A stretch of DNA of 64,000 nt. Origin: a virus. Numbering within the stretch: position 1 is the first letter of the stretch; each line of letters begins with the position of its first letter. Below, in pieces: positions 1,222 through 35,093 of this stretch. A program made the position numbers and the translations under genes. The stretch lies in UHGV virus genome UHGV-0375936, one strand, 5' to 3'. The notes beneath the pieces were generated by a model that did no database searches, was not told the DNA's origin, and worked only from the letters and a program-made list of their open reading frames with translations.

Positions 1222-1890
1222 CTATCTAAGAATATTTTTAGCGAAAAAAGGATCGACTATAAACTCCTTCACCTGTGAGTCATAACCCGAATGTATTTGA
1301 TCGCTACTGAGCAAATACCCGTCTAAATCGTGTGGAAGAATCCAAGAATCCCCCTGTTTAAAAATACCATAATCTGTTGTTCCAGAGGAAAAAACGATTT
1401 CCTCTGGAGAGGGATAGATGTGGCGTAAGGCAAGATCAGACGGCTTTAGCACGATTAATCGAACGGGATGTTGACTGACTGCCTCTTTAATAAACTGTTC
1501 ACGATTAAACCAAATTATTTTTTCGGGGTAAGTTTCGAATTCAGCCCATGTCCGCGTGATAACTAATTTGGAAATCTTTCTCAATTCTTCAGAATGCTCT
1601 GCGTAGCCGATACACTCCTTGCGTACTTCATGATTTTCTACCGATGCTGTGAATTTTTGGAATAGGTGTTGTTGGAAAAAGCCGTTCTCCGGGATATCAC
1701 AACCCGCGTTGTATAGTGCAACGATCTCCCACAACAACGAAAGAGAAAACACAAATGCTAACTTTTCCACAACTTCCCAATCTTCGGAGTAAGGGGCTTT
1801 AAAGCCCCAATACTGCCGTGCGTTATACATAAAGTGAGTTTGTAAAAACCGAGGGGCTTTTGACAAGACCTCACTATAAACGATCAGCAT
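1222..1890 (-). CDS. hypothetical protein
   Basis: 222-aa ORF, 7-nt overlap with upstream gene (translational coupling). Confidence 0.6.
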   Translation of the reverse strand: MLIVYSEVLSKAPRFLQTHFMYNARQYWGFKAPYSEDWEVVEKLAFVFSLSLLWEIVALYNAGCDIPENGFFQQHLFQKFTASVENHEVRKECIGYAEHSEELRKISKLVITRTWAEFETYPEKIIWFNREQFIKEAVSQHPVRLIVLKPSDLALRHIYPSPEEIVFSSGTTDYGIFKQGDSWILPHDLDGYLLSSDQIHSGYDSQVKEFIVDPFFAKNILR

Positions 1891-3404
1891 TCAAGCTCCT
1901 TATCCGTCAATATTCGTTTGTTTGAATAATAGCCGCACCACAACCCATGATATTTTTCCCCGATATAAACCAACGCGTACTCGATATACTGCCGTTCTGG
2001 ACGCCGTACCGCCACGTAGAATCGTCCTTCTGGTTCTTTCATACGGTTGATTTCCGTACGCGTCGGTATGTCGATACCTCGAGTAAGGATGGTTTTAACC
2101 TTGTTTTTGCTACCTGGGATATGGATGGTTACGTCAAAACCTTTATCTACGTTACGATAAAAGTCTTTCTTCGGCTTACCTTTCTCATCGTAAAGCAGGT
2201 CAGTAATGTCGTTCATTACGACTGAGTTTTTCCCCTCCATGGCATCGCGTAACCAACCTGCAAGCTCATCACGAATCGTAATGCAGCGATAAGACAATAA
2301 CGCGGGACGAAGAATTCGTGTAATCGAAAGATCTTCAAACATCCACAGGTTTTTGTCTTCGCTAAAATGCATCCGTTCGATAGGAATACCGTTAGCTGCG
2401 GCTTCTGCGAACTTCTTACGTTTTACGAATAAGTTAAATACAACGGCGATGGGATCAAATTGACGTAAACGGGGCACCCCTTCCCACGCTTTCGCAGAGT
2501 GGGTATTTACCAACTCGTATACGTTATCCCACGGTTCTTTGGTAAACATTACGCAGAATTGTGCGTCTGGAATGTACTTACCAACGAAGACGATATCGTC
2601 CTTCTGTTTTGCATGGTTCCCACCGAACATGTAATAAAGTTTATTACCGTTAACCGTAACCGTGGGATGCGGTTCGTTCACCATCGGGTAACAGAACTTC
2701 GTAACACAGATATCAGGAAAGGCAGACAAATTGACACCCTCGCCAACAACTTCTGGTTGCTGTTCTTCCTCAGGCATCTCGTCTTTTGACCAATACGGTG
2801 TATAGTCTAACCCATCACCTCGAGCCGAAATACTTGAACCTTTCCGTGCTAACTCGTCGGCACGTTCGTTTCCATAACGTCCTGAATGCCCTTTAATTTT
2901 AAGGACACGAACACCTTTCCCTTCTTTCTTTAACCGCTGTTTAACCTCCCACATCCGTTGGATTAATTCCAAGTTCGCAATAGGTGTACCGTCTGCACGA
3001 CGCCAACCGCGTGCAGCCCAACCATCAATCCAATCGTTATACGTGTTGACAACGTAAGAGGCATCGATATAGATAACATAGTTTTTGGCAACGAAAGGTG
3101 CGTGTTCGAAGACGGTCAGGAAAGCCACGAGTTCTGCAACGTCAGAGTGTGACATTTTTGGTACAGGCACAACGCCGTCAATAAACTCCACAGTTTCTGG
3201 TAAAGGTGGAAGTTTTTCATCCTTGTTTATCTGGCGGTATCCTGACGACGTAATCCCCTCTGGAATAGAGGGATGGCGGTAAACCCGACCATCCTCAATC
3301 GCTTCACGATTAAATAAGTATCCATGAATCCCCGCTCCTGTACCGAGCGGGGAGGTCAAATGGCTACCATCCGTGTAAATTACTGCAACATCAACGTTCT
3401 TCAT
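1884..3404 (-). CDS. RNase H-domain protein with about 300-aa C-terminal extension
   Basis: N-terminus VAVIYTDGS ... KIKGHSGRYGNERADELARKG resembles RNase HI active-site and C-terminal motifs; remainder unassigned. Confidence 0.65.
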   Translation of the reverse strand: MKNVDVAVIYTDGSHLTSPLGTGAGIHGYLFNREAIEDGRVYRHPSIPEGITSSGYRQINKDEKLPPLPETVEFIDGVVPVPKMSHSDVAELVAFLTVFEHAPFVAKNYVIYIDASYVVNTYNDWIDGWAARGWRRADGTPIANLELIQRMWEVKQRLKKEGKGVRVLKIKGHSGRYGNERADELARKGSSISARGDGLDYTPYWSKDEMPEEEQQPEVVGEGVNLSAFPDICVTKFCYPMVNEPHPTVTVNGNKLYYMFGGNHAKQKDDIVFVGKYIPDAQFCVMFTKEPWDNVYELVNTHSAKAWEGVPRLRQFDPIAVVFNLFVKRKKFAEAAANGIPIERMHFSEDKNLWMFEDLSITRILRPALLSYRCITIRDELAGWLRDAMEGKNSVVMNDITDLLYDEKGKPKKDFYRNVDKGFDVTIHIPGSKNKVKTILTRGIDIPTRTEINRMKEPEGRFYVAVRRPERQYIEYALVYIGEKYHGLWCGYYSNKRILTDKELEC

Positions 3405-4691: not shown

Positions 4692-5195
4692 TCACTCCTT
4701 AGAAGACGTTAGCGTCTTTATGATCTCCTGTCGAAAACTGTTCGCATTTAAATTGCCAACAGGTCTCGCCGAAGCCTCTTTACGTTGTTCTGGTGTTGAA
4801 GCTGGATTAACAGGAGTTTCTGGTTTTGTCGAAGACAGATCCTTCGCCGTACCGCTCGCTTTCGATGAATTAAACGTGCTTTCATATGGCGGTTTCTGGC
4901 CGAGGCAAACGAAGAGCCTGTCGTATAACTTCCCATTATCTTCTTTTAGTTTATCTCGATCTTGTTTCATCTCTTGGTAAGACTGCGACATATACGTGTC
5001 ATGAGACTGCACTGCAACGAGCGCGTGAAACTGTTGTACATAGGCGTAGGAGACGAAGCCAGAATACGACAACAAGATCGTGATGATTAAAGTCATTATC
5101 TTGCTTGCTCTTGATACGTTTTCTCCTTCTCCTGGTTTAAATGCTTCCATTAACATCTGAAGGAAGAACGGAAGCACTTTAAAAAATGAACCCAT
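4692..5195 (-). CDS. membrane-anchored coiled-coil protein
   Basis: Internal hydrophobic helix IMTLIITILLSYSGFVSYAYV followed by charged helical region; abuts 4233..4691. Confidence 0.5.
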   Translation of the reverse strand: MGSFFKVLPFFLQMLMEAFKPGEGENVSRASKIMTLIITILLSYSGFVSYAYVQQFHALVAVQSHDTYMSQSYQEMKQDRDKLKEDNGKLYDRLFVCLGQKPPYESTFNSSKASGTAKDLSSTKPETPVNPASTPEQRKEASARPVGNLNANSFRQEIIKTLTSSKE

Positions 5196-5220
5196 TGCTC
5201 ACCTCGGAGTATTTTTAATT

Positions 5221-6594
5221 ATGTTAGACTTACAAGGTTTTATTCAGATACCGGCACTGTTTGACAATCAGGACGGCGTCACCGCTCCGGTGGGCGAGCT
5301 GTCGGATTTGACACTCTCGTACGCGAAGAGTAAACAGACGTTTACTAAAACCAATTTGCAAGTTCAATTGGTGACTTTTACGTCTAAACGAGAAAAACAG
5401 ACGGTTGTTGTACCAGCCGAATTTTCTGATCATATTCTAACCGTTTCTCAATGGATTTACCAGCAAGCCATCTTGGGGAATCTGAGAAATGACGAACTTG
5501 AATTCCAGCGCCTGTTACTAGGACAATTCCAATCAACCATTTCTGGCGTTCAGTCCGGTGCGATGATCCAGACGAACAGTAACTGGTTCCCACGCTGGGT
5601 GAGCTGGAAATATGAAGCAACAGCAGATCAAGTACAAGATGACACCGATGTAGATAATCAGATCATTGTTTGGTTCTCGGATGAAGACTTCGATCAAGAT
5701 TACACAGGGTTCGAAATCGAAGTGCAGATGCCGATTTCACCAATCGACACATTTTTGTCGACCAAGTCAGTCGTTGAAAAGGCGATGGAAGGGTTTAACC
5801 TTACCGAACACCATAAGAAAATCAATGAGTTAATGGCAGGGTTTCCTTACACCGCTATCCAAACCAACTACTATACTTGGCACGATAAAGAAAACTACGA
5901 GTCCACCCTAGTTGTCCCAATGTCGGTTATTATTTACGGCCGCGCGGGAAAAAACCCAACGAAAATAAAGCAAGCGTTGCGAGAACATATTCTCGCCAAT
6001 TCTAGCTTTACTGTCCCCGTCGGGGTAAAGGTATTTCCTGAAATTTTCACTACCACGAAATTTACAATTGTTCCTGGATGGAAAATTCGTGGAATACCTA
6101 ATGAGGAAGACGTAGCGGCGCTTTATTCCCCTATCCTTCCATATGATTTCTGGGTCAAAGCTATCAGTCGGTTTGGAGAATGGGCAGACCTGACGGTAGC
6201 AGAAAGAAATACTAAAACGATCAGTAAGCCTACGACAGATGTAACTGACTTACCAACCGTTTATAAATCATTAAACTGTGTTGTAATCAGTGGGCCAGAA
6301 AATGATACGCGGAAAGCGACCTTACACGAAACTATCCCGGATTATGCGTTAATTGCGACGACTAACCCTGATATTGCGCGTATGTCGAAAACAACGACCG
6401 AATGGTTGGCGTTATTTTTCCAGGCACTTATTGCTGCGGAAGAATACCACCCGTATCAAACCAGCTTGGATATTGTAAAACTGGTCGATGAGGCTGACCC
6501 TGATAACTACTTCTGGGTGTTTGAATACGACAACGTAGAATATCGTATCCTGTCTCGGAAAGCGAAATGGTACACCGAGTTAGACAAGGAGTAA
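5221..6594 (+). CDS. hypothetical protein
   Basis: 457-aa ORF on plus strand inside a minus-strand block. Confidence 0.6.
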   Translation: MLDLQGFIQIPALFDNQDGVTAPVGELSDLTLSYAKSKQTFTKTNLQVQLVTFTSKREKQTVVVPAEFSDHILTVSQWIYQQAILGNLRNDELEFQRLLLGQFQSTISGVQSGAMIQTNSNWFPRWVSWKYEATADQVQDDTDVDNQIIVWFSDEDFDQDYTGFEIEVQMPISPIDTFLSTKSVVEKAMEGFNLTEHHKKINELMAGFPYTAIQTNYYTWHDKENYESTLVVPMSVIIYGRAGKNPTKIKQALREHILANSSFTVPVGVKVFPEIFTTTKFTIVPGWKIRGIPNEEDVAALYSPILPYDFWVKAISRFGEWADLTVAERNTKTISKPTTDVTDLPTVYKSLNCVVISGPENDTRKATLHETIPDYALIATTNPDIARMSKTTTEWLALFFQALIAAEEYHPYQTSLDIVKLVDEADPDNYFWVFEYDNVEYRILSRKAKWYTELDKE

Positions 6595-6597
6595 TGA

Positions 6598-7221
6598 ATG
6601 GCTACGCGTTTACCACTCCAGGTACCAGTCAACACCACGGGACTGTTCAAAGTAAAAACACCATTTACTTTGGCCGAGACGGTCATTTATACGGTAGAAG
6701 CGTCACGTACCTTCCCAGATTTAGTACGTCAGAATATTGACGTTTATAACTCGTATTACCAGCCAGTAGGGCTAGGACGTGAAGAATATTTAGCAGATGC
6801 GAATGTTAGTGCGTCGATTTTAACATTTAAATCTCGGGACGGTCAAGTTGTATACATACCTGACACCTACCTGGAATCATACCCAGGTTTATCCGGGATC
6901 ACGTATCAACGAAATGTGTTAGTAGTAGATTTGGCACTGGTACCGGATTACGTGAAAGTGTCGTCTATAACAAAAGACGTTTCAGATATTCTCACGCATA
7001 CACTAGGGATTGAGCCGAAAGTTGAAATTACAACGCTCGAGTATGAGGGGAAGGTAACGGAGGAACAGCACTTGCAGATGGAAGCGGCACGAAAAAATAA
7101 AATTCGTGAATCTATTCCATTAGGTGAGAAAGTTGCTGCGTTGACAGAAGAGAACAAAAAATTAAAAGAGTTAAACAACCAAATGTTAGAGATTCTTAAA
7201 GCTAACGGGTTAGTTAACTAA
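6598..7221 (+). CDS. hypothetical protein with C-terminal coiled coil
   Basis: 207-aa ORF 3 nt after previous stop; C-terminus KVAALTEENKKLKELNNQMLEILKANG. Confidence 0.6.
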   Translation: MATRLPLQVPVNTTGLFKVKTPFTLAETVIYTVEASRTFPDLVRQNIDVYNSYYQPVGLGREEYLADANVSASILTFKSRDGQVVYIPDTYLESYPGLSGITYQRNVLVVDLALVPDYVKVSSITKDVSDILTHTLGIEPKVEITTLEYEGKVTEEQHLQMEAARKNKIRESIPLGEKVAALTEENKKLKELNNQMLEILKANGLVN

Positions 7222-7228
7222 AAAGATT

Positions 7229-7262
7229 ACCCTACTCCTTCGGGAGTAGGGTAGCTTTTATT
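7229..7262. terminator. bidirectional Rho-independent terminator
   Basis: Perfect hairpin ACCCTACTCC-TTCG-GGAGTAGGGT between convergent genes, T-run after it. Confidence 0.6.
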
Positions 7263-7814
7263 TTAAATGTCGACTTCTAGTTTACGGTAATCGATGACGC
7301 CTTGAGCAATCATAGCAGCAACATCGTTCCAGGTACGAAAAATGAAGTAAACTGTGTCTCCGTTTAAAAAGATGTTAGATTCTTTATCCGGGAAATCATC
7401 TTCACTGAGGTAGTAGTAAGGTTTGTCGAAAGGGAAGTCGCGCTCATCAGAGGAACCAAGTACCGCATAACGATTGCCACAATCAAACAGAATCTTCCAA
7501 CCAGACAATTCACTATTAGCGTCAATACGATCGTCGATTTCAACGGTAATAGGAGAATGATCAAGAAAGCTGATTGTAACCTCTCCGTTATGCTGTCGTT
7601 TAAATCGACGAATATCTGTAGGCACAATTTCAGATGCTGCTATAAGGGAATAAAGTTGTGTTACGGTGATCTTTTTGTAAACACTATCGCCATCCCACAA
7701 ACGATCAAATAAGAAATTAGCCAGGAAATTTATATCCTTTAAACGTGAACGGAAAACAGAACCACGACGAATACCGTAAGCCAGATGAGTTAAATATTCA
7801 GACGATGGAAACAT
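7263..7814 (-). CDS. hypothetical protein
   Basis: 183-aa ORF; conserved RBS context (AGGAGTATTAAAATG). Confidence 0.6.
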   Translation of the reverse strand: MFPSSEYLTHLAYGIRRGSVFRSRLKDINFLANFLFDRLWDGDSVYKKITVTQLYSLIAASEIVPTDIRRFKRQHNGEVTISFLDHSPITVEIDDRIDANSELSGWKILFDCGNRYAVLGSSDERDFPFDKPYYYLSEDDFPDKESNIFLNGDTVYFIFRTWNDVAAMIAQGVIDYRKLEVDI

Positions 7815-7835
7815 TTTAATACTCCTAAGGTGGGA

Positions 7836-7868
7836 AAAAGAATTAACCCTACTCCCGGAGGAGTAGGG
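7836..7868 (-). terminator. Rho-independent terminator
   Basis: Hairpin CCCTACTCC-CGGA-GGAGTAGGG with A-run on plus strand (U-run on minus transcript). Confidence 0.55.
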
Positions 7869-7876
7869 GATTTAAA

Positions 7877-8812
7877 TTACTTTTTGGTTTGACCCAGGTT
7901 TTCAAGAACCAGCTCACGAATATACTTCTGAGTTCGTTTCTTCGGCGGTAGAGCCATAAGAGTGTCAACGATTCCCTGGCCGCCGATAACCTTGCTGACG
8001 AGTTGTTGAACTTGGAAGAGTTCTGCTTCTTCGTCACTGATCTCATTAGCTTGGTCTTTCTGACACAACGCTTCTACCAGGTCAGCTACGGATATTTCAT
8101 TTTCGTCACCGGGGAAATCCAGGTTTAACGATTCGAAAACATCACGCTTAACGAGTACAGATTTCAGATCATCGTAGTCTTCACAAACGGCGACTTCTGT
8201 GCCAGGTACCGTTTCTTCTTCGTCATGATCTCCTTCCTCAGGGTTATGGTATTTTACCAACGGTGAGTTGAACAACGGTCCTTTTTTCATCAGCACAAAA
8301 CCTACATGTGACCAACTGCTCAGGATGAAATAGACAGCAGACCCACTTAATCCGATATTACCTTGACGTAGGTCAAACGCAATTTCTTGACGGCGATAAA
8401 TCTGCCCTAAATCAAAGAAAGCTTCGTCACGAGCTGCAACAACATCATACTGATTCGCACCTTGTTCTACCACAACGAACCAATTACCGTGATCCGTTGT
8501 ATGTTGGTAAGGCACGAAAGATGGGTCATCTCTCATGATGGGATTAATGGCGATGGTCGAATACAGCATTCCCATAGAGAAGTTGAACGTATTCCTTTCT
8601 TGAAACGCAGTGAAATTATCAATTGGAAGGATTAAGGAGGTACGTTCGATAGAGAAAACCGTTTCCTGTGTAATCGACGTTGGATTTCTGCCCAGGAAAT
8701 AACCACGTAAAAAGTCGGCGGTCGCACCCACATTGGTTTGCATCGTCTTGCTGCTATGGTAACGACGTAGCGTGTTAGCCAGTTCGTGAATTACTTCAGA
8801 TGGAAAAGTCAT
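7877..8812 (-). CDS. hypothetical protein
   Basis: 311-aa ORF with RBS. Confidence 0.6.
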   Translation of the reverse strand: MTFPSEVIHELANTLRRYHSSKTMQTNVGATADFLRGYFLGRNPTSITQETVFSIERTSLILPIDNFTAFQERNTFNFSMGMLYSTIAINPIMRDDPSFVPYQHTTDHGNWFVVVEQGANQYDVVAARDEAFFDLGQIYRRQEIAFDLRQGNIGLSGSAVYFILSSWSHVGFVLMKKGPLFNSPLVKYHNPEEGDHDEEETVPGTEVAVCEDYDDLKSVLVKRDVFESLNLDFPGDENEISVADLVEALCQKDQANEISDEEAELFQVQQLVSKVIGGQGIVDTLMALPPKKRTQKYIRELVLENLGQTKK

Positions 8813-8866
8813 TTTAATAGTCCTCTTTTAGGTTTGTTCAAATCAACTAAGGGTTATGTAAAAAAG

Positions 8867-9346
8867 TTAAAATAATGGCAAGTTACGCCATTGTCCTACC
8901 GAGTAAAAAGCTTTTGGATGTTTACGGATATACGCTTTCGCTTCTTCTGGCAACCAACGGTCACCCGCCAGTTTTTGTTGTGCAACAATTACCGCCATCA
9001 ACAAATACGGGTTTTTCGCACCGGGGAACTTTGCATTGGTTTCTAGCGCAATATCCAACATTGACGACCAGCCCAGTAATTTATGTTGCGCCGGTAAACG
9101 TTCTTCAATATACATCAGCCATTTCATGATTTGTTTAGGCTTATACGGACAGGTATAATTCGCCCAACACACCATGACGAACTTAATAGCCTTCGCAATC
9201 ACCCATACAGGGACAGTCACGAAAAGGCAGAAAATGGCCAACTGCGAGGCGGGCGCTTCGACAAAAGTAACCGCTACAAGAACCATACACAGTTCAAGTA
9301 CCACAAACCAAAAACGCGTTGGATAACGCCAAATGAATTTTATCAT
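8867..9346 (-). CDS. membrane protein
   Basis: Two long hydrophobic segments in N-terminal half. Confidence 0.5.
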   Translation of the reverse strand: MIKFIWRYPTRFWFVVLELCMVLVAVTFVEAPASQLAIFCLFVTVPVWVIAKAIKFVMVCWANYTCPYKPKQIMKWLMYIEERLPAQHKLLGWSSMLDIALETNAKFPGAKNPYLLMAVIVAQQKLAGDRWLPEEAKAYIRKHPKAFYSVGQWRNLPLF

Positions 9347-9412
9347 AACTCTGTTCCTTTAGGGAATGAAAATAAAAGTACCCCTTACTCCGTATAGGGT
9401 AAGGGGTAGAAG

Positions 9413-9922
9413 TTAGAAGAACGGCTGATTTGGAATGACAGCGTACTCTAAAATGAACATATGTTCCGGGGCGTCTTCTTTACGCCAGACTTTGTGTGTC
9501 GACACAAGTTTTTCCAGAATCGTTAAGAAACTACGTTGGCAGTATGTGTTTTCACCAAGCAGTAGATTTTGAAGTTCTACAGTAGCGTCCATATACGCCT
9601 GTTTAAAGACTAAACTACGGTTATACTGCCCGGTAAAATTCCAAAGCAAGACCTTCCCTTCTTCGGTTTCTTTTACCGTTGGCCGTAAACCACAAATCCA
9701 CAGTAAGGCAAGGTTGACGTTCCAGTCAAACTCTAAACCTTCTTCTTCGTCAACACCGAATGCTGTGGGTAAAGCATCGTAAAATTCGTGTTTCTCTGCG
9801 AATTCTTCATCCGACTTAATCTCGTCTTCGATACTGCTTCGGACAATACTGTAAACGTCTTTCGCGGTCAATTGTGCGGCTTTTGTAATGCCTTTATACC
9901 AATCGGTTACTACGATGCTCAA
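9413..9922 (-). CDS. hypothetical protein
   Basis: 169-aa ORF, 4-nt overlap with upstream gene. Confidence 0.55.
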   Translation of the reverse strand: MSIVVTDWYKGITKAAQLTAKDVYSIVRSSIEDEIKSDEEFAEKHEFYDALPTAFGVDEEEGLEFDWNVNLALLWICGLRPTVKETEEGKVLLWNFTGQYNRSLVFKQAYMDATVELQNLLLGENTYCQRSFLTILEKLVSTHKVWRKEDAPEHMFILEYAVIPNQPFF

Positions 9923-10644
9923 AGGGTAACTCCTCTATTGATTGGAAAACTCGTGTTTATCGTATCCCAAATTCTACTAACTTCCGCCAGTTGAATCTGA
10001 CGTGGTGTTTTCTTCGCAAACGCAAGCTGACGTGGGGCCGAGCCCACAACAACAGGCACATCGATTTTCGCGCTATAGAACGAGGCGTCTTTCATAAAGC
10101 CTGCCATTTCTCGTTGTGCTGCTCGAGATTTGCTTTTGATTCGCGTGTGAGCGCCACTTTCACCCCAGTGGTAAGCTAACGCAACTTCAGCCATGGTGGG
10201 CTTGCGTTTGAGTCGTTTGGTTAACCCCTTCTCAAGATGTTTAACATACGCGGTAGCCAGCAAAACAGCATTACGCGGATTATACAAATCGGCGTTCTGA
10301 CTAAGACCTAATTCTTTTCCATAAAGCTTTAGCAGATTACGCTTGGTACTTGGAAGCATTTGTACCAGGCTGTGTGCTCGTGAGCTTTTGTTGTAAGCCT
10401 TGGGATCAAAACGCGATTCACGATAAATCAGCGTAATCATCAGCTTGGGATCAACGCCCTGCTTTCGTGAGATTTCCACAATTAACGGGCTGACTTTTTC
10501 GAACCGATGTTGGATTTGTGCAAACTCTCGCTGATGCTTAGAATGTGGCGTTGACGTTGACGCCTGTGCGTTAAACGCGAAAAGTGTTACCAGTAAAAGA
10601 AAGAAGATACGAAACATTTTGTTTCTCCAGTTGGATTTATACAT
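9919..10644 (-). CDS. lytic transglycosylase (SLT domain) with signal peptide
   Basis: Signal-like MFRIFFLLLVTLFAFNAQAS; SLT catalytic region LIYRESRFDPKAY...SLVQMLPST. Confidence 0.75.
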   Translation of the reverse strand: MYKSNWRNKMFRIFFLLLVTLFAFNAQASTSTPHSKHQREFAQIQHRFEKVSPLIVEISRKQGVDPKLMITLIYRESRFDPKAYNKSSRAHSLVQMLPSTKRNLLKLYGKELGLSQNADLYNPRNAVLLATAYVKHLEKGLTKRLKRKPTMAEVALAYHWGESGAHTRIKSKSRAAQREMAGFMKDASFYSAKIDVPVVVGSAPRQLAFAKKTPRQIQLAEVSRIWDTINTSFPINRGVTL

Positions 10645-10717
10645 TTCCGTATTCCGTAAGACGAAATGACGGCGCGGACAGCTAATACTCCTTTGTTGTG
10701 TGCCCTAATGATAATAT

Positions 10718-11278
10718 CTATTTAAAAGAGTTTGGAATTAATGACTCTGCTTCTTGGTACAGCTTATCAGGTAAATATAACGTGTAGCGCTGCCTCCTCG
10801 GTTCAAGTTTTTTGTAAAGCCACAAAAAGATTTCTTGTCTTTCCCAGGAATCTAACCACCCATTTGCCATCCCCAGTGGAGGGATAGCAACGCTGGTATC
10901 CAGATCCTCAGCACAGTCTGCTAATGCGGTAATGCCCGCAGTAACATAAGAAACCTGGGATTTTAAACGCCAATGTGTTTTCGTGGGGAGCAAGATACAC
11001 TTTTCGTCAGAGTAAACGTAAACGCTTCCAATCTTAATTTCGTCTTCACGACACCGCTTACGATAATCCTGATAAAGGTTGGGGTAGCGTTCACGACACG
11101 CGAGTGCAATACCGCGACCCATCGCTCCTACGCAGTTAATGGTAACGACTTTATAGTCTTCGGGCGCATTAAAAAGATCGTTACCAATTTCAGATTCTTT
11201 ACGTACCGTTAACATAACGAAACGCCCGGAGTTGATGTGTAGTATTAAAACGTGTACCGCCGATTGATAGCTCGACAA
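10718..11278 (-). CDS. macro-domain-like protein (start codon uncertain: TTG 11278 or ATG 11215)
   Basis: VVTINCVGAMGRGIALA and VAIPPLGMANG segments resemble macro/ADP-ribose-binding fold motifs; weak RBS. Confidence 0.4.
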   Translation of the reverse strand: MSSYQSAVHVLILHINSGRFVMLTVRKESEIGNDLFNAPEDYKVVTINCVGAMGRGIALACRERYPNLYQDYRKRCREDEIKIGSVYVYSDEKCILLPTKTHWRLKSQVSYVTAGITALADCAEDLDTSVAIPPLGMANGWLDSWERQEIFLWLYKKLEPRRQRYTLYLPDKLYQEAESLIPNSFK

Positions 11279-11302
11279 GTATAGCGATATATGTTTTACC
11301 CA

Positions 11303-11671
11303 TTATCGATTTTTCGTAATCCATTGCTTGACCGCTGCTTCTAAACCTTCGTGTTGTAAGCCCAGGCGCTGCATAGTCAGTGACAAGTTAAGCGTGTGGA
11401 CGACCTGCTCACGGAACTGATGATCGTTCATACGGTCCCAGACCTTCTCTACTGAAATATTGTGTTTCCAGAGCAAATAAGCTTCACGACACGATGCGCG
11501 ACGAACTAAACTGGGTTTAACAAAAGGCAACTCGATTTCAGGCAAGTAACCTAAAAGCTTAACTAACGGCGTTACCTGCGTCTTACCGAAGTCACCACAT
11601 TGATAACAAATTTGCAGAATATCAATTTCATTCAACGGTATGCCGTAAATTGATGGGTTCTCTGTGAACAT
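11303..11671 (-). CDS. hypothetical protein
   Basis: 122-aa ORF, AGGAGAA RBS. Confidence 0.5.
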   Translation of the reverse strand: MFTENPSIYGIPLNEIDILQICYQCGDFGKTQVTPLVKLLGYLPEIELPFVKPSLVRRASCREAYLLWKHNISVEKVWDRMNDHQFREQVVHTLNLSLTMQRLGLQHEGLEAAVKQWITKNR

Positions 11672-11873
11672 TCATATTCTCCTCAGGCTCGAAATGTGAT
11701 TCGGGTGGCAACGTCCCTAAAGCCCCTTGGATACAAGCCGTCAGTGAAGGTTTGCCGAAACAGACCTTACCTATCGTCCCCACATTGGGATGCTGTAAGA
11801 ACGCTTTCGCACGTTCGTATTCTTTCCAACAAATACTCGTATCCAAACCACCCACTCCGTACGATTTTAACAT
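11628..11873 (-). CDS. hypothetical protein
   Basis: 81-aa ORF overlapping the start of the next gene. Confidence 0.4.
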   Translation of the reverse strand: MLKSYGVGGLDTSICWKEYERAKAFLQHPNVGTIGKVCFGKPSLTACIQGALGTLPPESHFEPEENMNVHREPINLRHTVE

Positions 11874-11939
11874 AATTAGCTCTCCTGACGTAAATTTCTC
11901 ACACTCATAGTGAGGTACGCCAAGAGAGCTTTATTGTTT

Positions 11940-12383
11940 TTAGAATGTTTTGCTAAAATCGACCCACTCACGATCGTGTGAGTAAACCGCTTGATAGCCG
12001 CGTCGGATGAAATACTCTTTTGCTTCTTTACATTTCGCATACATGCCAGTAACAATCTCGCCGAAAACTTCATCAGCTGCAATTGCTTTGAAAATCTCTT
12101 TCATTACACCCCGTTGACGATAGTCTGGGAGCACGTATACCGAACGTATCTTAAGTGAACCGTTACGATTCCGATAACTACAGTATCCTACCGCGACATC
12201 ATCCTGATACACCAGAACTATGCAGTTACCTTCGATCAGCTGTCGCGCATTTAACTTCGGCACCGACATTTTGATTTTCAGTAACGTGGCCTGGTGGTCT
12301 AAGTAACGGTAGTGTAGTTTGAGTAAATCGGCAGCTTGTCGCTCGCCAACTTTAGAAGATGCGTTCAACAAATAAATTTCCAT
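11940..12383 (-). CDS. GNAT-family acetyltransferase-like protein
   Basis: Translation matches the minus strand only; YRQRGVMKEIF resembles the GNAT acetyl-CoA-binding motif; ATG at 12381-12383. Confidence 0.5.
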   Translation of the reverse strand: MEIYLLNASSKVGERQAADLLKLHYRYLDHQATLLKIKMSVPKLNARQLIEGNCIVLVYQDDVAVGYCSYRNRNGSLKIRSVYVLPDYRQRGVMKEIFKAIAADEVFGEIVTGMYAKCKEAKEYFIRRGYQAVYSHDREWVDFSKTF

Positions 12384-12414
12384 TTGCAAACCTTAGAGAC
12401 GCAAAAAAGTAAAA

Positions 12415-12543
12415 TTAAAACCAACGCGCGATGACGAAAGCCGCAGCGGCTAATATGGCTGTGGTGATTATCAATCCACCCCATGAAAGTTCCGCGTCGT
12501 ATAGTGCGGATATCGCTACATTCGTAGCGTTTATCGTGGTCAT
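12415..12543 (-). CDS. small hydrophobic peptide (42 aa)
   Basis: ATG with AGGAG RBS 6 nt upstream; MTTINATNVAISALYDAELSWGGLIITTAILAAAAFVIARWF; below ORF-track cutoff. Confidence 0.35.
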   Translation of the reverse strand: MTTINATNVAISALYDAELSWGGLIITTAILAAAAFVIARWF

Positions 12544-12600
12544 TTTCTGCTCCTGTCAATACCCTCACACCGGAGGGTATCTTCTGGACTATTTGGGTGG

Positions 12601-12699
12601 TTAATCTTCGAACGCCCAACGGTGACGTTTAATCAGCCAGTTTAAACCTTTACCAATTAACCACAACGAGCCAAGTGTTAACAGAACCCCTACAACCAT
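12601..12699 (-). CDS. small hydrophobic peptide (32 aa)
   Basis: ATG with AGGAGAGGG RBS; MVVGVLLTLGSLWLIGKGLNWLIKRHRWAFED. Confidence 0.35.
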   Translation of the reverse strand: MVVGVLLTLGSLWLIGKGLNWLIKRHRWAFED

Positions 12700-12709
12700 A
12701 TTCCCTCTC

Positions 12710-12895
12710 CTAATTCCGCCATTCGCATTCGCGTTGACGCCAAATTGAACCCCACGATAGTTTAATCAGATAAGATGAAACTACCCATAAAATCATCACC
12801 ACACAAAACATGACATAAAGAACCGCTAGAATGGACATGAAGCCAAACCCTGCCGCATCCACAATACGACGGAACCAATCAGTTTGCATAAACAA
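12710..12895 (-). CDS. small membrane protein
   Basis: 61-aa ORF with long hydrophobic core; overlaps the stop of the ATPase gene. Confidence 0.4.
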   Translation of the reverse strand: MFMQTDWFRRIVDAAGFGFMSILAVLYVMFCVVMILWVVSSYLIKLSWGSIWRQRECEWRN

Positions 12896-15383
12896 TTTTT
12901 ACTCCTTCGTTATACACCGCAGGCAATGTCACCCCTTCCGGTTCGATGACACAGTACGATGCTTCATTAAGTTTAGAATGAACCTCGGCTTCGTGGGAGA
13001 CTACCAACAGTTGGGAAAATTCTCCCGAGTTTGCTAACGTTTTAATAAAACCGACCAGGTTGTTACGGTGCTCCTCATCCATGCCTTCCGAAGGCTCATC
13101 CAAAAGCAACGGAAACTGATGCAACTTCAGCGCTTTGTACGCAGTCAGCCTGAACATCAGATTAAATATCGCACGCTGCGCCTTAGACCCTTTACGCACG
13201 TCAGGAACAGGCTCAGGATGCGTTTTTAGCTGGACAGGAAAAGTATAATCCAAATCGCCGTCAGTGAGGTCACAAGGCATAACGCGCATGGGGTACGTCC
13301 AGACCTGTTCGATATAACGCGTCATTAACTCTGTGATTCTAACGATAGCGTTGTAAAAATACTTTCTAAGTACACCCTTTTCTGGCGAGAAGGCTTGAAT
13401 CATCAGTTTGTTATTGAACTGCTGGGCTTGTAAGTCAGCAAGTTCGCGTTCCAAACTGTTGAGCTGATTCAATTCATTTTCCATCTGACGATAACGTTCG
13501 CGTGCGGTTGTAAAAGCATCCAGCTTCCCTTCTCGAGCACGTAAGAGTTCCTCGACGACCGTATTTGTCAACGTAACCTTAACATCACTCTCTAACCGTT
13601 CGAATAACGCACTGAAATCATCTACAGCACGTTTAACATTCACCAGATAGGTAAGTGTCGTGTTAGCCAGTTCGTGCTCTCTACGACGCATTGAGAGCAT
13701 CTCTGTGGCTTTACCTAATCGTGACTGTTGAAAAGCAATTTTCTGTTGTAAAGCACCATCGACGTTACCAACGGCCGCTACGGCATCCTGCCATTCTTTT
13801 TCCGCCTTCACTAACCGTTGTCGGGTTTCATGGTACTCAATAGCAGAGTACAACTCACTGTCAAACGCTGCGCATAGACTACCGAACTGTTCACGTGATT
13901 CTGTGAAAACGTTACGTTCTTGCAAACGCTTAAAGAACATGCTCAATACCGGGTCCTTTGAATACGTCAGCACAATCTCACGAACCTGCCGCATATAAGT
14001 TACATCAGATTCTAACTCAACACGATCGCGTAATAGGGCCTCTAACTGCGTTTGCAGTTCCGTGCGCTGCTGCTGTTGTCCACGAATCGAAGACTCAAGT
14101 TCAGGTAAAGAACGTGTAACACCAGGCCGAAACTTAAACCGGCACTGCGGACAATCCACTTCCGCTGTTTCTAAGTAGTGATTACGTTCGTGATTTAAAT
14201 TCTGTAAAACGTTCTCCACTCGCTGGAGTCTATCCCGCAACCCTGCGGTTTTTTGATCCATCACCAGAAGCCGTTCTTCCAAAACATTGAGTTTTTCAGT
14301 TGAATGAATTGCGTCCAGTGTTGTTCCTAACCGTTGCCCCCAAACACGCGCATCGGTAGCCGCACGAAGTTGGTCTAAATTGACGTTGTCGTTAAATAGA
14401 CCCGGAAAGAGATGCTCGGTGTCCCATTTGGTAAGTAACTCACGTAAACGCGCCAATGTATTCTTGAGACCTTCGTGATTCCGCATCAGGTAGTCTTGTC
14501 GTGTTGACTCATCCATCAATAACGACAAGTCTTTATTCAACATCGATACCTCTGTTTCAGTAGACACGACAGCTTCGCGGGCCGTCGCTTCGTTTTGTCG
14601 CGCGACCAGTATCTGTTCATCGGTAGGCAGGCCACCACGATGTTGTAATATTGCGTCGATGGTTGGGCCCAAGCTGTTTAATAACGCTTGGATTGTTTCG
14701 ATGGTGACGGCACGATTTAATCCTGGCAACTGTTCGATTTCTCGGTTCAATTCACGTAAATCCGATTCCAAACCTTTTAATCTCGTCGCTAACTGCTGCC
14801 GTTCTTCCTCGTTCTCAATAACACGCGTCCGTAATTCGGCGATCTTGCGGCTGGTGATTTCAATACCCCCATTTAAGGCAGTAAGGTTTTTACGTAAACG
14901 TTGATAAAACCCTAACGCGTAAGTGAGGTCAGAGGTACTTAAACGGTAAAACCATTTGCGGCGTAATTCGGTTCCCGCATCGGTTAACAACACCTCACCA
15001 TTTAATAGTTCTTTAATCTCTTTCGTAATACCCGTGATTTCTTCAACACGGGAGTTGTAGACTTTCGCATTACCTTGCTCGACGATCTTTGTCCCCGTGG
15101 TCAGGTTCTCAATATCGCAAACCAAAGAGTTGCCTTTACGGGCAACTTTGAATCGATAGCGTTGATCGCCAACTAAACAGTAGTTCGTGTAAGAACCGCC
15201 GTCCCTGAATTCAGTTTTAGCTGGTGCTAAGGGTAAGAACACAGACAGTAGACTGGTTTTCCCGCAGCCGTTCCCACCCAGGATAATTGTTGTCGGAGAC
15301 TGGATAGTGAAATCGAAGGTTTCAATTTCATGTAACCCCATCCCCGTAAAACCTTTGAGTATAATGCGTTCAACTTTTAGCAT
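12879..15383 (-). CDS. SbcC/Rad50/SMC-like ABC-type ATPase with long coiled coil
   Basis: Walker A GGNGCGKTSLL; coiled-coil middle; C-terminal LLLDEPSEGMD...LLVVSHE (Walker B/D-loop/H-loop); start probably ATG 15383 after GGAGG. Confidence 0.7.
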   Translation of the reverse strand: MLKVERIILKGFTGMGLHEIETFDFTIQSPTTIILGGNGCGKTSLLSVFLPLAPAKTEFRDGGSYTNYCLVGDQRYRFKVARKGNSLVCDIENLTTGTKIVEQGNAKVYNSRVEEITGITKEIKELLNGEVLLTDAGTELRRKWFYRLSTSDLTYALGFYQRLRKNLTALNGGIEITSRKIAELRTRVIENEEERQQLATRLKGLESDLRELNREIEQLPGLNRAVTIETIQALLNSLGPTIDAILQHRGGLPTDEQILVARQNEATAREAVVSTETEVSMLNKDLSLLMDESTRQDYLMRNHEGLKNTLARLRELLTKWDTEHLFPGLFNDNVNLDQLRAATDARVWGQRLGTTLDAIHSTEKLNVLEERLLVMDQKTAGLRDRLQRVENVLQNLNHERNHYLETAEVDCPQCRFKFRPGVTRSLPELESSIRGQQQQRTELQTQLEALLRDRVELESDVTYMRQVREIVLTYSKDPVLSMFFKRLQERNVFTESREQFGSLCAAFDSELYSAIEYHETRQRLVKAEKEWQDAVAAVGNVDGALQQKIAFQQSRLGKATEMLSMRRREHELANTTLTYLVNVKRAVDDFSALFERLESDVKVTLTNTVVEELLRAREGKLDAFTTARERYRQMENELNQLNSLERELADLQAQQFNNKLMIQAFSPEKGVLRKYFYNAIVRITELMTRYIEQVWTYPMRVMPCDLTDGDLDYTFPVQLKTHPEPVPDVRKGSKAQRAIFNLMFRLTAYKALKLHQFPLLLDEPSEGMDEEHRNNLVGFIKTLANSGEFSQLLVVSHEAEVHSKLNEASYCVIEPEGVTLPAVYNEGVKIVYAN

Positions 15384-15461
15384 ACCCACCTCCATAAAGA
15401 CGGAGTGTGGTGTAAAAAGAAAAAAATAAAGAAAGGGAGAACCCGAAGGTTCTCCCTAACG

Positions 15462-16070
15462 TTATTTGGTATACAGCTGATAACCCATTGAAGCCCAATA
15501 ATCAATGTTCTTCGCGTTTTCTACCCAAACCTGTCCCGCCTTTGTGGCTAAGACTTCCATTGTCAATGTACAGATCAGATTTGTTACCTGGATACAATTT
15601 CCAGGTGTAACATCATCCAGATAAACCGGATATAAAAACGGCGATTTAATGGATTGGTACGGGTAAGAATAGTGGCTACCGACTTTCCACCCTTCTTCTA
15701 CAGGGCAGAGATTATAAGTGCGTGTTTCAGGAACTGCGTTTTCAGAGATCCAGTTAACAACATCGGCTTTAATTCGATCGTGGTCGATATAGTAGAACAC
15801 AACACGCTGTGGGATACTTGTGGTACCAGCCGGGTCTAAAGCCTCCAACGCCTTAAAAGGCGACGTTAACAATGTTGTACTGTTCTCAAGCGCGTAAACC
15901 AACTTTTCGTAAGCAGTCGGTGTTTTGCGTTTAAAATATTCCCGTAAGCGAGGGTAAGCCAGGAAGCCCTCTACTTCTTCTTCCATTAAGTCAATGAATA
16001 AAGGCGTATGCGAAAACCGCTCTGCATTTTGCATCGCTTCAAGAAAACGAACTAATGTAATTTCGTTCAT
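15462..16070 (-). CDS. hypothetical protein
   Basis: 202-aa ORF. Confidence 0.55.
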   Translation of the reverse strand: MNEITLVRFLEAMQNAERFSHTPLFIDLMEEEVEGFLAYPRLREYFKRKTPTAYEKLVYALENSTTLLTSPFKALEALDPAGTTSIPQRVVFYYIDHDRIKADVVNWISENAVPETRTYNLCPVEEGWKVGSHYSYPYQSIKSPFLYPVYLDDVTPGNCIQVTNLICTLTMEVLATKAGQVWVENAKNIDYWASMGYQLYTK

Positions 16071-16087
16071 CTGGTCTTTCCTTTTAG

Positions 16088-16118
16088 ATCAAAAAAAGAA
16101 GCCCCGAGTAAACGGGGC
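16088..16118 (-). terminator. Rho-independent terminator
   Basis: GCCCCG-AGTAAA-CGGGGC hairpin with adjacent A-run on plus strand. Confidence 0.5.
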
Positions 16119-16126
16119 CGGGCTAA

Positions 16127-16603
16127 TTACAGCCCTAAGTGCGTGAGTGATAAAATAGGTTGTGTTTCACCTTTAATCGTCGCGTAGGAACGATACATTT
16201 CTGCGTTACTTGAAAAAACTTCGTTAGCAACGATACATTCACCCGTCTCTAAAGAAAGGAGATAAATGTAGTCGCTCCATACGCTTTGTACCAATACCCA
16301 CTCAAGTGCGGTATCATTTTCGCGTGTTGTTCGCAGGTGATGAAAGTAAGGACGGATTGCATCAACCGCCGCATTAAAACGACGGTGATAGATTCGGGTT
16401 AAATCAAAGGTCCAGATTGTTTCCAGGTCGACTGGATGTAATGTGCGCACCGTTTCGATAATCGTCGACTGATCGTTAAGGCGCGAGGCTTCGGCGATAC
16501 GTAGCAGTTTCCAGGCTACCGTTAAGTTGTGGCGAATTTGTTCAGGTTTAGCCGACAGGTCATGATGAAATTGCGCAGCTTGGTAAACGTTAGATAATTG
16601 CAT
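16127..16603 (-). CDS. hypothetical protein
   Basis: 158-aa ORF; conserved initiation context CCTAAAGGAGTATTAAAATG. Confidence 0.55.
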   Translation of the reverse strand: MQLSNVYQAAQFHHDLSAKPEQIRHNLTVAWKLLRIAEASRLNDQSTIIETVRTLHPVDLETIWTFDLTRIYHRRFNAAVDAIRPYFHHLRTTRENDTALEWVLVQSVWSDYIYLLSLETGECIVANEVFSSNAEMYRSYATIKGETQPILSLTHLGL

Positions 16604-16631
16604 TTTAATACTCCTTTAGGTAAATATGTCG

Positions 16632-16658
16632 TAAAAAGGACCCCGGACGTACCGGGGC
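16632..16658 (-). terminator. Rho-independent terminator
   Basis: CCCCGG...CCGGGG hairpin with A-run on plus strand. Confidence 0.5.
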
Positions 16659-16669
16659 CAAGACTACAC

Positions 16670-17059
16670 TCAAAGATCTAATTCGATAGCACCAGCCATC
16701 TTGCCCCGTTCTTCTATAACGATCAGATAACGGTCGCGAGATTTGCTTTTAGCGAGAGTTAAGACAACGGTAGGGTCGCACGTTTTCGTGGTGATAGGAA
16801 GAACCTCTCTTGCGACGGAATCGAGCAGAAAGTAATAACCTGCGGGACACATTGTGCCGCCATCAGCTTTTACCAGAATATAGCGCCCGTCTGCGCCGAC
16901 TTCTTGGCAGATTGTTTCACCGACTTCGCAAACTTCAAACCCCGGAGGATTGTACTGGTAATCGGTATTGTTGTTTGGGGTTAGCAGTAAATCGTTAACT
17001 TGAGTAGATGCTGCTACACTCAGGGAGAAGAAGAATGCTAAAACGCAGACGAGACGCAT
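16670..17059 (-). CDS. small secreted protein
   Basis: N-terminal signal-like MRLVCVLAFFFSLSVAAS. Confidence 0.55.
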   Translation of the reverse strand: MRLVCVLAFFFSLSVAASTQVNDLLLTPNNNTDYQYNPPGFEVCEVGETICQEVGADGRYILVKADGGTMCPAGYYFLLDSVAREVLPITTKTCDPTVVLTLAKSKSRDRYLIVIEERGKMAGAIELDL

Positions 17060-17069
17060 GAGTTACTCC

Positions 17070-17480
17070 TTAAATTTTAAGTTTATCCATAGCTACAACG
17101 ATAGGTTTTTCCGAAGTGTCTAATATCCCTACCATTGGCACACCATCTACGACTTCGAAGAATGGTTTGTTATTACCAGAGCATAGACGTTTGTCGTTGT
17201 ATTCGAGACGCTGAGCCTTCCACGTTTCGAGGTTGAGTACGGACATTGGGCTGTCGTAGCACCAGGCACCACCTTGCTCAACGATGAATACGTATCTGCT
17301 ACCTTTGTATTTAAACAGGCTCTTTGCCTGGCAGTACAACCCGTCTATTTCCGTACAATAGAAATCATCGGTGCTATTGACGTACTTAATATTGTCTGGC
17401 AACTGTATTGTCTTTGCTGTAGCGTTGACAGAGAACAGAACAGCCATTGCAATGAGAAGAGTATTAATGATAGTTTTCAT
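17070..17480 (-). CDS. small secreted protein
   Basis: N-terminal signal-like MKTIINTLLIAMAVLFSVNATA. Confidence 0.55.
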   Translation of the reverse strand: MKTIINTLLIAMAVLFSVNATAKTIQLPDNIKYVNSTDDFYCTEIDGLYCQAKSLFKYKGSRYVFIVEQGGAWCYDSPMSVLNLETWKAQRLEYNDKRLCSGNNKPFFEVVDGVPMVGILDTSEKPIVVAMDKLKI

Positions 17481-26537: not shown

Positions 26538-29500
26538 ATGGCTGTCGTCCTAGACCCACACTTCAAAAAACCGGGGAATAAAATAACCGGTGAAGCGGTC
26601 GCCGTCATTGGTACGAAATACCGAATGTTGGTACCTGCCCACGCCCCTTTTTTCACCACATCCCTGGTGGTCAAGAGCGGCGGCAAAACACTGACCTTAG
26701 GCGACGATTACATTATTACACACCCGTACGAGACCGGTATGTTGCGCACAGCCTATCTCATTCACGGGATGATTTGGATTGTTAATGACAAATACAAATC
26801 GAATTTTACGGTAGATTACCACGCCGTTGGTTGTGGTCAGGCTACCCAACAACAGATTACCGCAGAACGCGAACTCAATAAAGATAAATACCCGACTACG
26901 TGTCAGTGGGACACCGTCATCGGGGACGTTTACTTTCCGCCGGTCGATATCCAGTTCGATTGGGAGAATTGGAAAGGTGAACTGGAATTAATGCAGGCTA
27001 TTGCTGGATTAGGCGATTCGTTAGGGGAAGTCGTGAGTCGACTTAACCCCATCGCACGCAATACCCTGGATTTAGAATACCGTGCTAACAGCAAGGTTAT
27101 CACTTCCGAGCAGTATGCCGCATACGACAATAAAGGTGGGTTCACCTACAACACTACCCGTCATCGTTATAGCTTGAGTTATAAAACTGCAACCTTTAAC
27201 GACTACGCCCTGTCAGTGAAACATAGAATTCCTGCTATTCTGCCAGACATGACGAAATTGAATCCAAACGAACAGATCGATTGGATGCTCTGTTATGCTA
27301 ACGGCGGGGCAAGTATTCTACGGCTGCAGCTAAAACAGCGCAAAATCTCACTGGTCTTAACGGTCGCTATTGGTAGCGGTTCAACAAACTACGATTATAC
27401 GTTAATCAACGGTTTAACTGACGATGAGTTAAAAAACGATATCGATTTTAGTGTAACCCGTCAACCCGGAAACGGTGTTTACGTCATCGTAGTAAAAACA
27501 AATAAACAGACCATGGATTACACATTCAACGTCGATACGCCGCCTGATGAGTTCTCGGCAGGGTATTCGAAAACGGATGTTGCTAAATGGTTGAAGTCTA
27601 AAACGAACATTAACCTGAACTGGTATGCTGGACAAAAAGATTATGTTCAAATTCGTTCTTTACCCGGCGCACCAGAACCTGACGTCGACAACGATGTTTA
27701 CCAGTTAATAGTTAAATACCATCAATTAGTTGAGCAGCTGTATCGTAACGCGCCTGCACACGAACACGTTACACGTAAGGACAACCCGCACACCGATACG
27801 TGGGGCCCGATCCGTGCGTTACAGCTGAATGGTATTGCGTCGGATGCCGCGTTAGCTTACGGGAAAACGAAACAACAGTTAACGGATTATGTTAATGCTA
27901 AGTACCCAACACAAGCAACGTTAACCGCACAGAAAAAACTGCTTCGTGAATCGGCGAACAAGAACGTTAACGGCACGATTACCACACTTCCGGGTTTTAC
28001 TTCGTTCACGACGGAAGTTGATCCGGTTTCGATGTCGAAATACGTGAGTCCTAGTTTTAGCGAAAGCTACGTTAGTAATGGTCACAGGTATCACGGTGCG
28101 CTTCGTTACACAGGAACGAAAAGCGGTTTCAGTGCTAACTTTAATGCGGTGCCTGCCAACCTGCAAGATATTGACTTTATTGTTACCGGACGTAAAACAG
28201 CGTCTGGTAACGAAGCTGTCGGTGCAGTTGGTTTGCGTTTCTACGAAAACCCCGGTAGTAACTCCGGTAAGTTTGTAGAGATTAACGGACAAATCTGGGC
28301 TGGTACCCTTACTATCAGTCTGACATTGAACGGTTACGGGAGTCCGTTACCGTCGGTGCGTTATATTTCTCAAGCCCCTAATCCGGCAATACCGGATGGA
28401 GATTTTACGCTACGTTTTCAACTGAAGCGTACAGGGAACGTGTTTGACGTCGTTATTACCGTAAACGGTAAAACGTATAGCGCCCGGATTAACTTCAATA
28501 ACATGGACGCTGCGTTAGAAGCATTAGAGAATCAGCACCACTTTAAATCGCTGATCAATAATGTTGCCGATGGCGTCAAAATTAGTTCGCAAAACAAAGG
28601 TAACACGGTTACCATTAAGAAAGCACCGGATGTCGTTGACGGAACTCGTTTAGGTGCCCAGTTTGTCGTTGATCCGAAATCCATTAAGTTTATTGGCCAA
28701 GGTTCAACTGATGTTAACGTAGGAAATAACCCCGTAACGTTCCAAGCAGGTACTAACCAGCTTATGTTGTATCCTGACGATCGTGGGTTACAGTGGCGTG
28801 GTAAAAAACTCTTAGACCCTACCACCGTGGCCCCGTATCTGCCAGGTAATACCGCAGGTGGTACCGGTTTATTCTACGCAAGCTCGACAACAACAGTTAC
28901 GATCACTGGTAGCGGGATAAAAGCTTCGCCGTTCGTAGCGACCTTTATTCTCCCTACCGCGACCGATACAACGGCTCTGGCAGCTTGGCAGTTGACCGAT
29001 GAGTTCGGTACTGCTGAAAACCTTGCAGCAACGCCAGCACTGATTGAAAAACTGGATGCGGAGTTCACCGGTAAGTTAGTTGCAGTTAAATCGTACATTA
29101 ACGACATGCAGCTTACCAGCTCGGTTACTATCGATAAGATTACCTTCGGTTTAGGTAATGTTGCGAATACGCCCGATGTCAATTTACCGATTTCTACAGC
29201 ACAGCGTGCGGAGTTAGATAAATACTCGCCTAAGGTTCACCAACACCCGTTTACCGCTTTTGGTACCGGGAACGCAACCACAGCGAAACGCGGTCTGATT
29301 AAATTTGGTCTGGATGTGGATGATGCGACTTTAGCACTCGATGGGAGTGTGGTAATGGCGCAGACTTCCCAGATTGAAAAATTGGAGAGTGCTGTCGGCG
29401 GCGTTGACTCGGAGGCACGTCTTGATATCATACGTTTTGGTGAGTCTGGTAACGACTTAATAGACGTTACGGTCAAAGACAAAATTCTGGTCACGCTTCC

Positions 29501-30860: not shown

Positions 30861-30873
30861 GGAGAATTTTTTG

Positions 30874-35055: not shown

Positions 35056-35093
35056 GACAGACTGCCTGCGGGCAGTTGTGTGTCCGTAGGTAA

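Follow-up and report, generated by a model that had tools for sequence, protein, structure and literature searches.

We found that a minus-strand gene of a jumbo phage, at 10718..11215 of the window, very probably encodes an AdfM, an orphan DarG2-type DNA ADP-ribosyl glycohydrolase countering DarTG2, and we put the probability of this reading at about 0.82. The window is the whole stretch of DNA analysed here (UHGV virus genome UHGV-0375936, 64,000 nucleotides), which represents 64 kb out of a genome of roughly 225 kb. The original prediction, made from the letters of the sequence, proposed a reversal of ADP-ribosylation directed against host defences; orthology to AdfM and a DarG2-type domain support this proposal and sharpen it. 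A first reading of raw sequence would here have picked out a genuine counter-defence gene, and an uncultured jumbo phage of the enterobacterial type would join the carriers of AdfM.

Gene boundaries and start codon

The open reading frame on the minus strand has 186 codons and runs from TTG 11278 to a stop at 10718. We aligned 29 sequences, among them homologs with as little as 34% identity. Nearly all proteins began at the column of ATG 11215 ('ML...'), and only one of them, P0010, carried an N-terminal extension beyond it (9 aa). A 165-aa product was called on four independent public contigs encoding the identical protein, and gp217 of Erwinia phage Asesino is annotated with a length of 166 aa. 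These results indicate that ATG 11215 is the best-supported start, giving a predicted coding sequence of 10718..11215, while the 21 codons that a start at TTG 11278 would add are not supported. The original prediction had considered both codons and had seen a strong ribosome-binding site at neither. No Shine-Dalgarno-like motif was found before TTG 11278 or ATG 11215, and the sequence upstream of the latter reads ...CAACTCCGGGCGTTTCGTT; the remark on the binding site thus held, and the choice between the two starts is settled in favour of ATG 11215. The gene and its leader are as follows.

10718..11215, minus strand: coding sequence, 165 aa plus stop, a stand-alone DarG2-type macrodomain and predicted AdfM ortholog (open reading frame, profiles, AlphaFold2 model and Foldseek, synteny)
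11216..11302, minus strand: 87-nt intergenic leader, from the stop of the upstream gene at 11303 to ATG 11215, holding the unsupported TTG 11278

A sigma-70 promoter scan around the macro gene showed no promoter-like site, and a terminator scan gave one weak terminator-like site, within the upstream gene. Because chimalliviruses transcribe with their own RNA polymerases, both scans are uninformative. The macro gene showed 100% DNA identity among the four contigs that encode the identical protein, so that a comparison of synonymous and nonsynonymous changes is uninformative on selection.

Macrodomain fold and nearest relatives

The protein had been described as macro-domain-like from Gly-rich and VAIPPLG segments. 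Both were located in the translation, as GAMGRG at residues 30-35 and VAIPPLGMANG at residues 109-119 (nt 10859-10891), numbered from ATG 11215. The Pfam Macro profile PF01661 matched residues 25-116 with 26.9 bits (gathering score 22, E=4.9e-6), and PHROG 335, which bears the label 'phosphatase', matched with E=1.3e-35. In a phmmer search of PDB sequences, DarG macrodomains came first (5m3i of M. tuberculosis, 2.5e-25; 5m31 of T. aquaticus, 2.8e-20), and a DarTG protein, 7omu of T. africanus, came next (2.1e-11); ADP-ribose-1''-phosphate phosphatase (6lft and relatives), as the following macro class, reached only E=0.018-0.047 over a 50-residue stretch. The DarG profiles were matched in their N-terminal parts only: NCBIfam antitoxin_DarG with 124 bits (equivalog cut-off 250) at profile positions 7-155 of 338, and the PADLOC DarG profile with E=9e-37 at positions 7-152 of 329. 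Taken together, these scores put the resemblance to macro domains far outside what chance would produce.

We built an AlphaFold2 model on the homolog alignment (mean pLDDT 92.9, pTM 0.89), and the predicted structure was a single alpha/beta/alpha domain over the whole chain. A Foldseek search of the PDB with this model returned the DarG macrodomains 5m3e, 5m31 and 5m3i at the top (E about 2e-13, TM 0.77-0.86, rmsd 1.8-2.3 A), followed by a DarTG complex and then, at about 2e-7, by human TARG1 and by SCO6735 of S. coelicolor. There were 153 PDB matches at E<=0.001, and the best 50 of these 153 were macrodomains or designed enzymes. Profile search and predicted fold both gave macro matches, the two places where the prediction could have failed for want of any macro hit, and the reading stands. 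These findings confirm that the window protein is a macrodomain, and its nearest macro class by both sequence and predicted fold is the DarG macrodomain, with the DarG2 antitoxin structures of T. aquaticus (5M31/5M3E) and M. tuberculosis (5M3I) as the best match.

Predicted active site

The following elements were located by alignment.

11135..11137, minus strand: codon of Asn27, equivalent to N22 of T. aquaticus DarG (TaqDarG) and N23 of PhiKZ AdfM by alignments; Asn in at least 90% of 29 homologs
11111..11128, minus strand: loop 1, GAMGRG, residues 30-35, predicted Gly-rich loop binding the phosphates of ADP-ribose (alignment to DarG)
10970..10984, minus strand: T78-K79-T80-H81-W82 (alignment to TaqDarG)
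10859..10882, minus strand: loop 2, PPLGMANG, residues 112-119 (alignments to DarG and PhiKZ)

In TaqDarG, ADP-ribose is contacted by N8, L9, T20, N22, V31, Q34, T79, G117, G119, N120 and G121; K80A is inactive, N22A has the next largest effect, K29E and G119E are impaired, and W83 was proposed to stack on thymine (Jankevicius et al. 2016, PMC5179494). The PDB chain is numbered with an offset of 10 from that paper, which we checked on T20, N22, K29, T79, K80, H82 and W83. The equivalents of K80, N22, H82, W83, G117, N120 and G121 are retained in the window protein. K79 occupies the position of the catalytic Lys in TaqDarG (K80), TARG1 (K84) and PhiKZ AdfM (K78); T78 corresponds to T79 of TaqDarG, H81 and W82 to its H82 and W83, R34 of loop 1 to its K29, and G115, N118 and G119 of loop 2 to its G117, N120 and G121. 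Mutation of the active-site Asn lowers activity in both TaqDarG (N22) and PhiKZ AdfM (N23) (PMC5179494, PMC13309987). Two positions depart from DarG: A117 replaces G119 of TaqDarG, the same Ala being present in the enzymatically active PhiKZ AdfM (GCANGG), and W120, which adjoins the active site, stands where DarG and PhiKZ have Gly.

Across the 29 homologs, T78 and K79 were invariant, as were G30, M32, G33 and G35 of loop 1 and P112, P113, L114, G115 and G119 of loop 2, while N27 was nearly invariant. To judge by this conservation, the window protein retains an intact catalytic apparatus of the DarG-type ADP-ribosyl glycohydrolases. One homolog, P0001 (96% identical; cluster of 157 members; from a 1.4-kb contig), has Tyr for Asn27, with TIYCVG against TINCVG, and could be either an inactive variant or a sequencing error.

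Genomic setting of the gene

A megablast search of window positions 10000-12000 against 50,697 phage records gave no match, so that this collection has no close sequenced isolate of the phage, which was therefore placed through its proteins. A neighbouring 838-aa SbcC/SMC-like protein shared 71% identity with its counterparts in Erwinia phages (Asesino, Stratton, phiEaH2) and 58-60% with those in Salmonella SPN3US-like phages, whose genomes, like those of the Erwinia phages, are about 240 kb. By window genes, the closest phage genera were Erskinevirus and Seoulvirus, both Chimalliviridae. In the region 5.2-20.8 kb, 17 of the 22 window ORFs tested had collinear matches in the Asesino locus, and the macro gene sits exactly at the gp217 slot in the Asesino order, flanked by the gp212-216 cluster on one side and the SLT-domain endolysin gp218 on the other. 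Downstream lie large paralogous virion proteins of a kind that such phages typically carry.

Window positions 4718..17215 (12.5 kb) were 100% identical to a metagenome scaffold of 225,403 bp (ENA ERZ28645711, TETT19-3_SAMN11265221 scaffold_3), indicating that the window comes from an uncultured jumbo phage. By its genes it is probably an SPN3US/Asesino-like member of the Chimalliviridae. Salmonella enterica assemblies contain homologs about 89% identical, on contigs that reach 226 kb, which suggests an uncultured chimallivirus lineage that infects Salmonella or other enterobacteria. Chimallin and PicA were not seen in the 64-kb window; from its relatedness to these phages, the window phage would be expected to form a nucleus.

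Two further genes lie beside this locus. A GNAT acetyltransferase (11940..12389, minus strand; phrog_3810; Pfam Acetyltransf_1/7/10) is encoded three genes upstream of the macro gene, and the SbcC/SMC-like ATPase (12879..15395, minus strand) follows just past it; both are conserved in Asesino.

Orthology to chimallivirus AdfM

The window protein was 62% identical to Asesino gp217 over 159 aa (E=8e-74) and 40% identical to PhiKZ gp104 (E=4e-30). On position and similarity together, the gene is best described as the positional ortholog of Asesino gp217 and a homolog of PhiKZ gp104. Both proteins were named AdfM in 2026 (Morgan et al., Cell Rep 2026, PMC13309987), as were PhiPA3 gp108 and Goslar gp83, and homologs occur in about half of chimalliviruses (PMC13309987). 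In vitro, PhiKZ AdfM strips the ADP-ribose placed by DarT2 from the second T of TNTC; its N23A mutation lowers this removal, K78 is its putative catalytic Lys, and the protein rescues E. coli from DarT2 toxicity (PMC13309987). Both PhiKZ and PhiPA3 need AdfM against DarTG2, their deletion mutants losing 3-6 log of titre, and GFP fusions placed the proteins of PhiKZ, PhiPA3 and Asesino inside the phage nucleus, nuclear localisation being the sole property reported for Asesino gp217 (PMC13309987). The nuclear-import signals are surface patches that co-evolve with PicA, and import is PicA-dependent.

Like the chimallivirus AdfM proteins, the window protein is a stand-alone macrodomain in the range of about 160-166 aa from a jumbo phage of probable Chimalliviridae type, with the active-site Asn and Lys and the Ala variant of loop 2 (G-x-A-N-G), and it shares with Asesino gp217 the genomic position upstream of the SLT endolysin. 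It differs from the known AdfM proteins in coming from an uncultured metagenomic phage, in W120, and in the motif THW, which is THF in Asesino and DNW in PhiKZ. By analogy with these orthologs, we infer that the window protein has enzymatic activity, specificity for thymidine, import into the nucleus and a protective effect against DarTG2.

Some features weigh against a simple transfer of function. Identity to the enzymatically tested PhiKZ protein is just 40%, the clade substitutions W120 and A117 flank the active site (TaqDarG G119E being impaired), and the 19-kDa window protein is roughly neutral (pI 6.6), whereas DarG has a positively charged surface near its active site (PMC5179494). The clade of SPN3US, Asesino and the window phage conserves the MANGW motif, a Trp (W120) next to the catalytic loop, and a C-terminal YLPxxLxxEA tail. 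The AdfM of this clade may differ from that of PhiKZ in substrate range, or exceed it, by acting on uracil or RNA, on protein, or on the products of DarT2 variants with other motifs, and the tail may be a nuclear-import surface specific to the clade; we regard this as an unlikely extension of the AdfM reading.

Comparison with DarTG modules and other phage enzymes

The macrodomain of DarG is by itself sufficient as an antitoxin (Jankevicius et al. 2016, PMC5179494). Unlike DarG, which has about 330-370 aa, the window protein ends at residue 165 and does not have the C-terminal DarT-binding domain; unlike DarG2, it is phage-encoded and its gene has no adjacent DarT gene. No Pfam domain of DarT or another ADP-ribosyltransferase (ART) was found in the ten flanking genes, and a tblastn search of the whole 64-kb window with P. 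aeruginosa 505 DarT2 (query from PMC13309987) gave a best E of 0.30, a search that remote ARTs could escape. Since the DarT-binding domain is absent and neither the flanking genes nor the tblastn search showed a DarT or ART, the window protein is not the DarG antitoxin of a toxin-antitoxin module. A phage-borne toxin-antitoxin cassette is likewise unsupported by the Pfam results for the ten neighbours and by the DarT2 search of the window. The same results gave no support to the second use that the original prediction had suggested for the protein, the resetting of modifications made by the phage itself.

A stand-alone macrodomain encoded by a phage and needed against DarTG2 is also known from T4, in which Tk.4, likewise named AdfM, is required for DarTG2 resistance (HIDEN-SEQ preprint, bioRxiv 10.1101/2025.11.20.689424). 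Similarity to the window protein was remote (BLASTP E=3e-4 over 43 residues). Tk.4 does not have a Lys aligned to K79 (MAFFT) and, unlike the window phage as placed here, T4 is not a nucleus-forming phage. We therefore rejected a grouping of the window protein with Tk.4, the remote similarity pointing to a different lineage. AdfN, a NADAR-domain protein of T4-like phages, follows the same strategy of an orphan antitoxin enzyme against DarTG, with an unrelated fold and with DarT1 guanine adducts as its substrate (PMC11825919).

Alternative functions

Human TARG1 has the macro subclass fold and the catalytic Lys in common with the window protein (Foldseek E=1.7e-7, TM 0.71-0.79). Because TARG1 is a protein de-ADP-ribosylase, the substrate class cannot be read from the sequence alone. 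Macrodomains as a class act on many substrates, and the window protein might thus be a TARG1-like mono-ADP-ribosyl hydrolase that clears proteins of phage or host, at Glu/Asp or other residues, of the ADP-ribose attached by host ADP-ribosyltransferase defences, or resets the marks of a phage-encoded transferase. TARG1, which acts on protein Glu-ADPr, is nevertheless far more distant (19% identity in Foldseek); DarG is much closer by structure, and phmmer did not detect TARG1. D125, which we take to be the second catalytic residue of TARG1, lies outside the DarG-type motif PPLGMANGW that the window protein keeps. The ten neighbouring genes encode no ART domain, the characterised orthologs act on DNA, and we judge a protein hydrolase to be very unlikely. 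The chance that the protein hydrolyses ADP-ribosylated RNA, in answer to RNA-targeting ART defences or toxins and not to DarT2, appears slimmer still. Recent papers (PMC11833690, PMC13036486) report that ADP-ribosylation of RNA bases is reversed by macrodomain and NADAR proteins, and the uracil-N3 and thymine-N3 linkages would be chemically similar. The orthologs, however, sit in the phage nucleus with the DNA, and DNA ADP-ribosylation explains their loss-of-function phenotype; the sequence itself holds nothing that separates RNA from DNA specificity.

A metabolite-processing macrodomain, acting as ADP-ribose-1''-phosphate phosphatase or O-acetyl-ADP-ribose deacetylase, might degrade immune signals derived from ADP-ribose. 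The 'phosphatase' label of PHROG 335, the 'Appr-1-p processing' annotation of homologs and the weak PDB matches to the phosphatase noted above all lean this way, but the labels are legacy transfers of the Pfam name A1pp, real phosphatases are marginal against DarG, their E-values lying more than 20 orders of magnitude apart, and the catalytic Lys that characterises DarG and TARG1 is invariant. This function, too, seems to us highly improbable. That the protein is a non-catalytic reader or sponge of ADP-ribose, or a decaying remnant without function, would agree with the Tyr at position 27 of P0001. The catalytic and ligand-binding residues are nonetheless intact and conserved in relatives down to 34% identity, the position beside the SLT transglycosylase is kept in Asesino, and dozens of records from jumbo phages of the SPN3US-like and Erwinia groups contain the gene, so that we give this explanation almost no weight.

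Proposed mechanism

If the window protein is AdfM, infection would release the host DarT2, which would use NAD+ to ADP-ribosylate thymidine within TNTC motifs of the phage DNA in its single-stranded form, a modification expected to block replication and packaging. By analogy with the orthologs, the phage nucleus would import AdfM after its synthesis in the cytoplasm. Its two Gly-rich loops would bind the ADP-ribose moiety, and Lys79, helped by Asn27, would cleave the bond between ribose and thymine, restoring the DNA. AdfM would in effect be an orphan DarG2 antitoxin cut down to its catalytic domain and, because it does not have the DarT-binding domain, would repair the damage instead of sequestering the toxin. 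A phage that hides its DNA in a protein nucleus would then still need an antitoxin mimic of the DNA-repair type against DarTG2.

The window contains 2264 TNTC motifs on both strands, compared with 2115 +/- 39 expected from first-order Markov simulations. The motif is abundant and not depleted, and loss of target motifs is not a route by which this phage avoids DarT2.

Wider family and annotation

A HMMER search of 1.84 billion representatives found 5,109 relatives at E<=1e-3; tightening the threshold to E<=1e-10 left 1,846, and only two representative clusters (clustered at 50% identity) reached 1e-30. Of the 148 others in the best 150, 65 were 290-399 aa long and 38 were stand-alone proteins of <190 aa. 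Ten of the long relatives were scanned, and all of them matched the DarG equivalog with 203-259 bits, one above its cut-off; one of the ten was a DarT-macro fusion. The nearest cellular relatives were full-length DarG or DarG-like proteins, and a derivation of the phage proteins from DarG2-type antitoxin macrodomains fits this picture.

A macro-domain or Appr-1-p processing label is carried by dozens of records from SPN3US-like and Erwinia jumbo phages. The biology of AdfM was already published in 2026 for direct orthologs, and no open question becomes newly testable here. The value lies in annotation, as homologs in jumbo phages of the SPN3US-like and Erwinia groups that now bear the names 'phosphatase', 'Appr-1-p processing protein' or 'hypothetical protein' are better read as AdfM-type DNA ADP-ribosyl glycohydrolases.

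Other genes in the window

A 706-aa ORF (60432..62552, minus strand) was considered as a chimallin and rejected, being a homolog of the NanS-p / SASA-family esterases of Stx prophages. It belongs to phrog_143, and its best phage matches (about 50-52% identity over 80%) were NanS-p / SASA family carbohydrate esterases, or yjhS 9-O-acetyl-sialate esterases, of Stx-converting lambdoid prophages (933W L0105 and others). Such a gene is unexpected in a jumbo phage, and just 4 records had 60-80% identity. At 26538..41576 on the plus strand, four consecutive large ORFs of 1440, 1394, 1728 and 435 aa cross-matched PHROGs 7557, 8078, 7449 and 2163 ('virion structural protein') and resemble a tandem array of paralogs, giant virion proteins with a common N-terminal module. 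A 506-aa protein encoded at 1884..3404 on the minus strand matched phrog_3265 'ribonuclease' and contains an RNase H-like segment (phrog_531).
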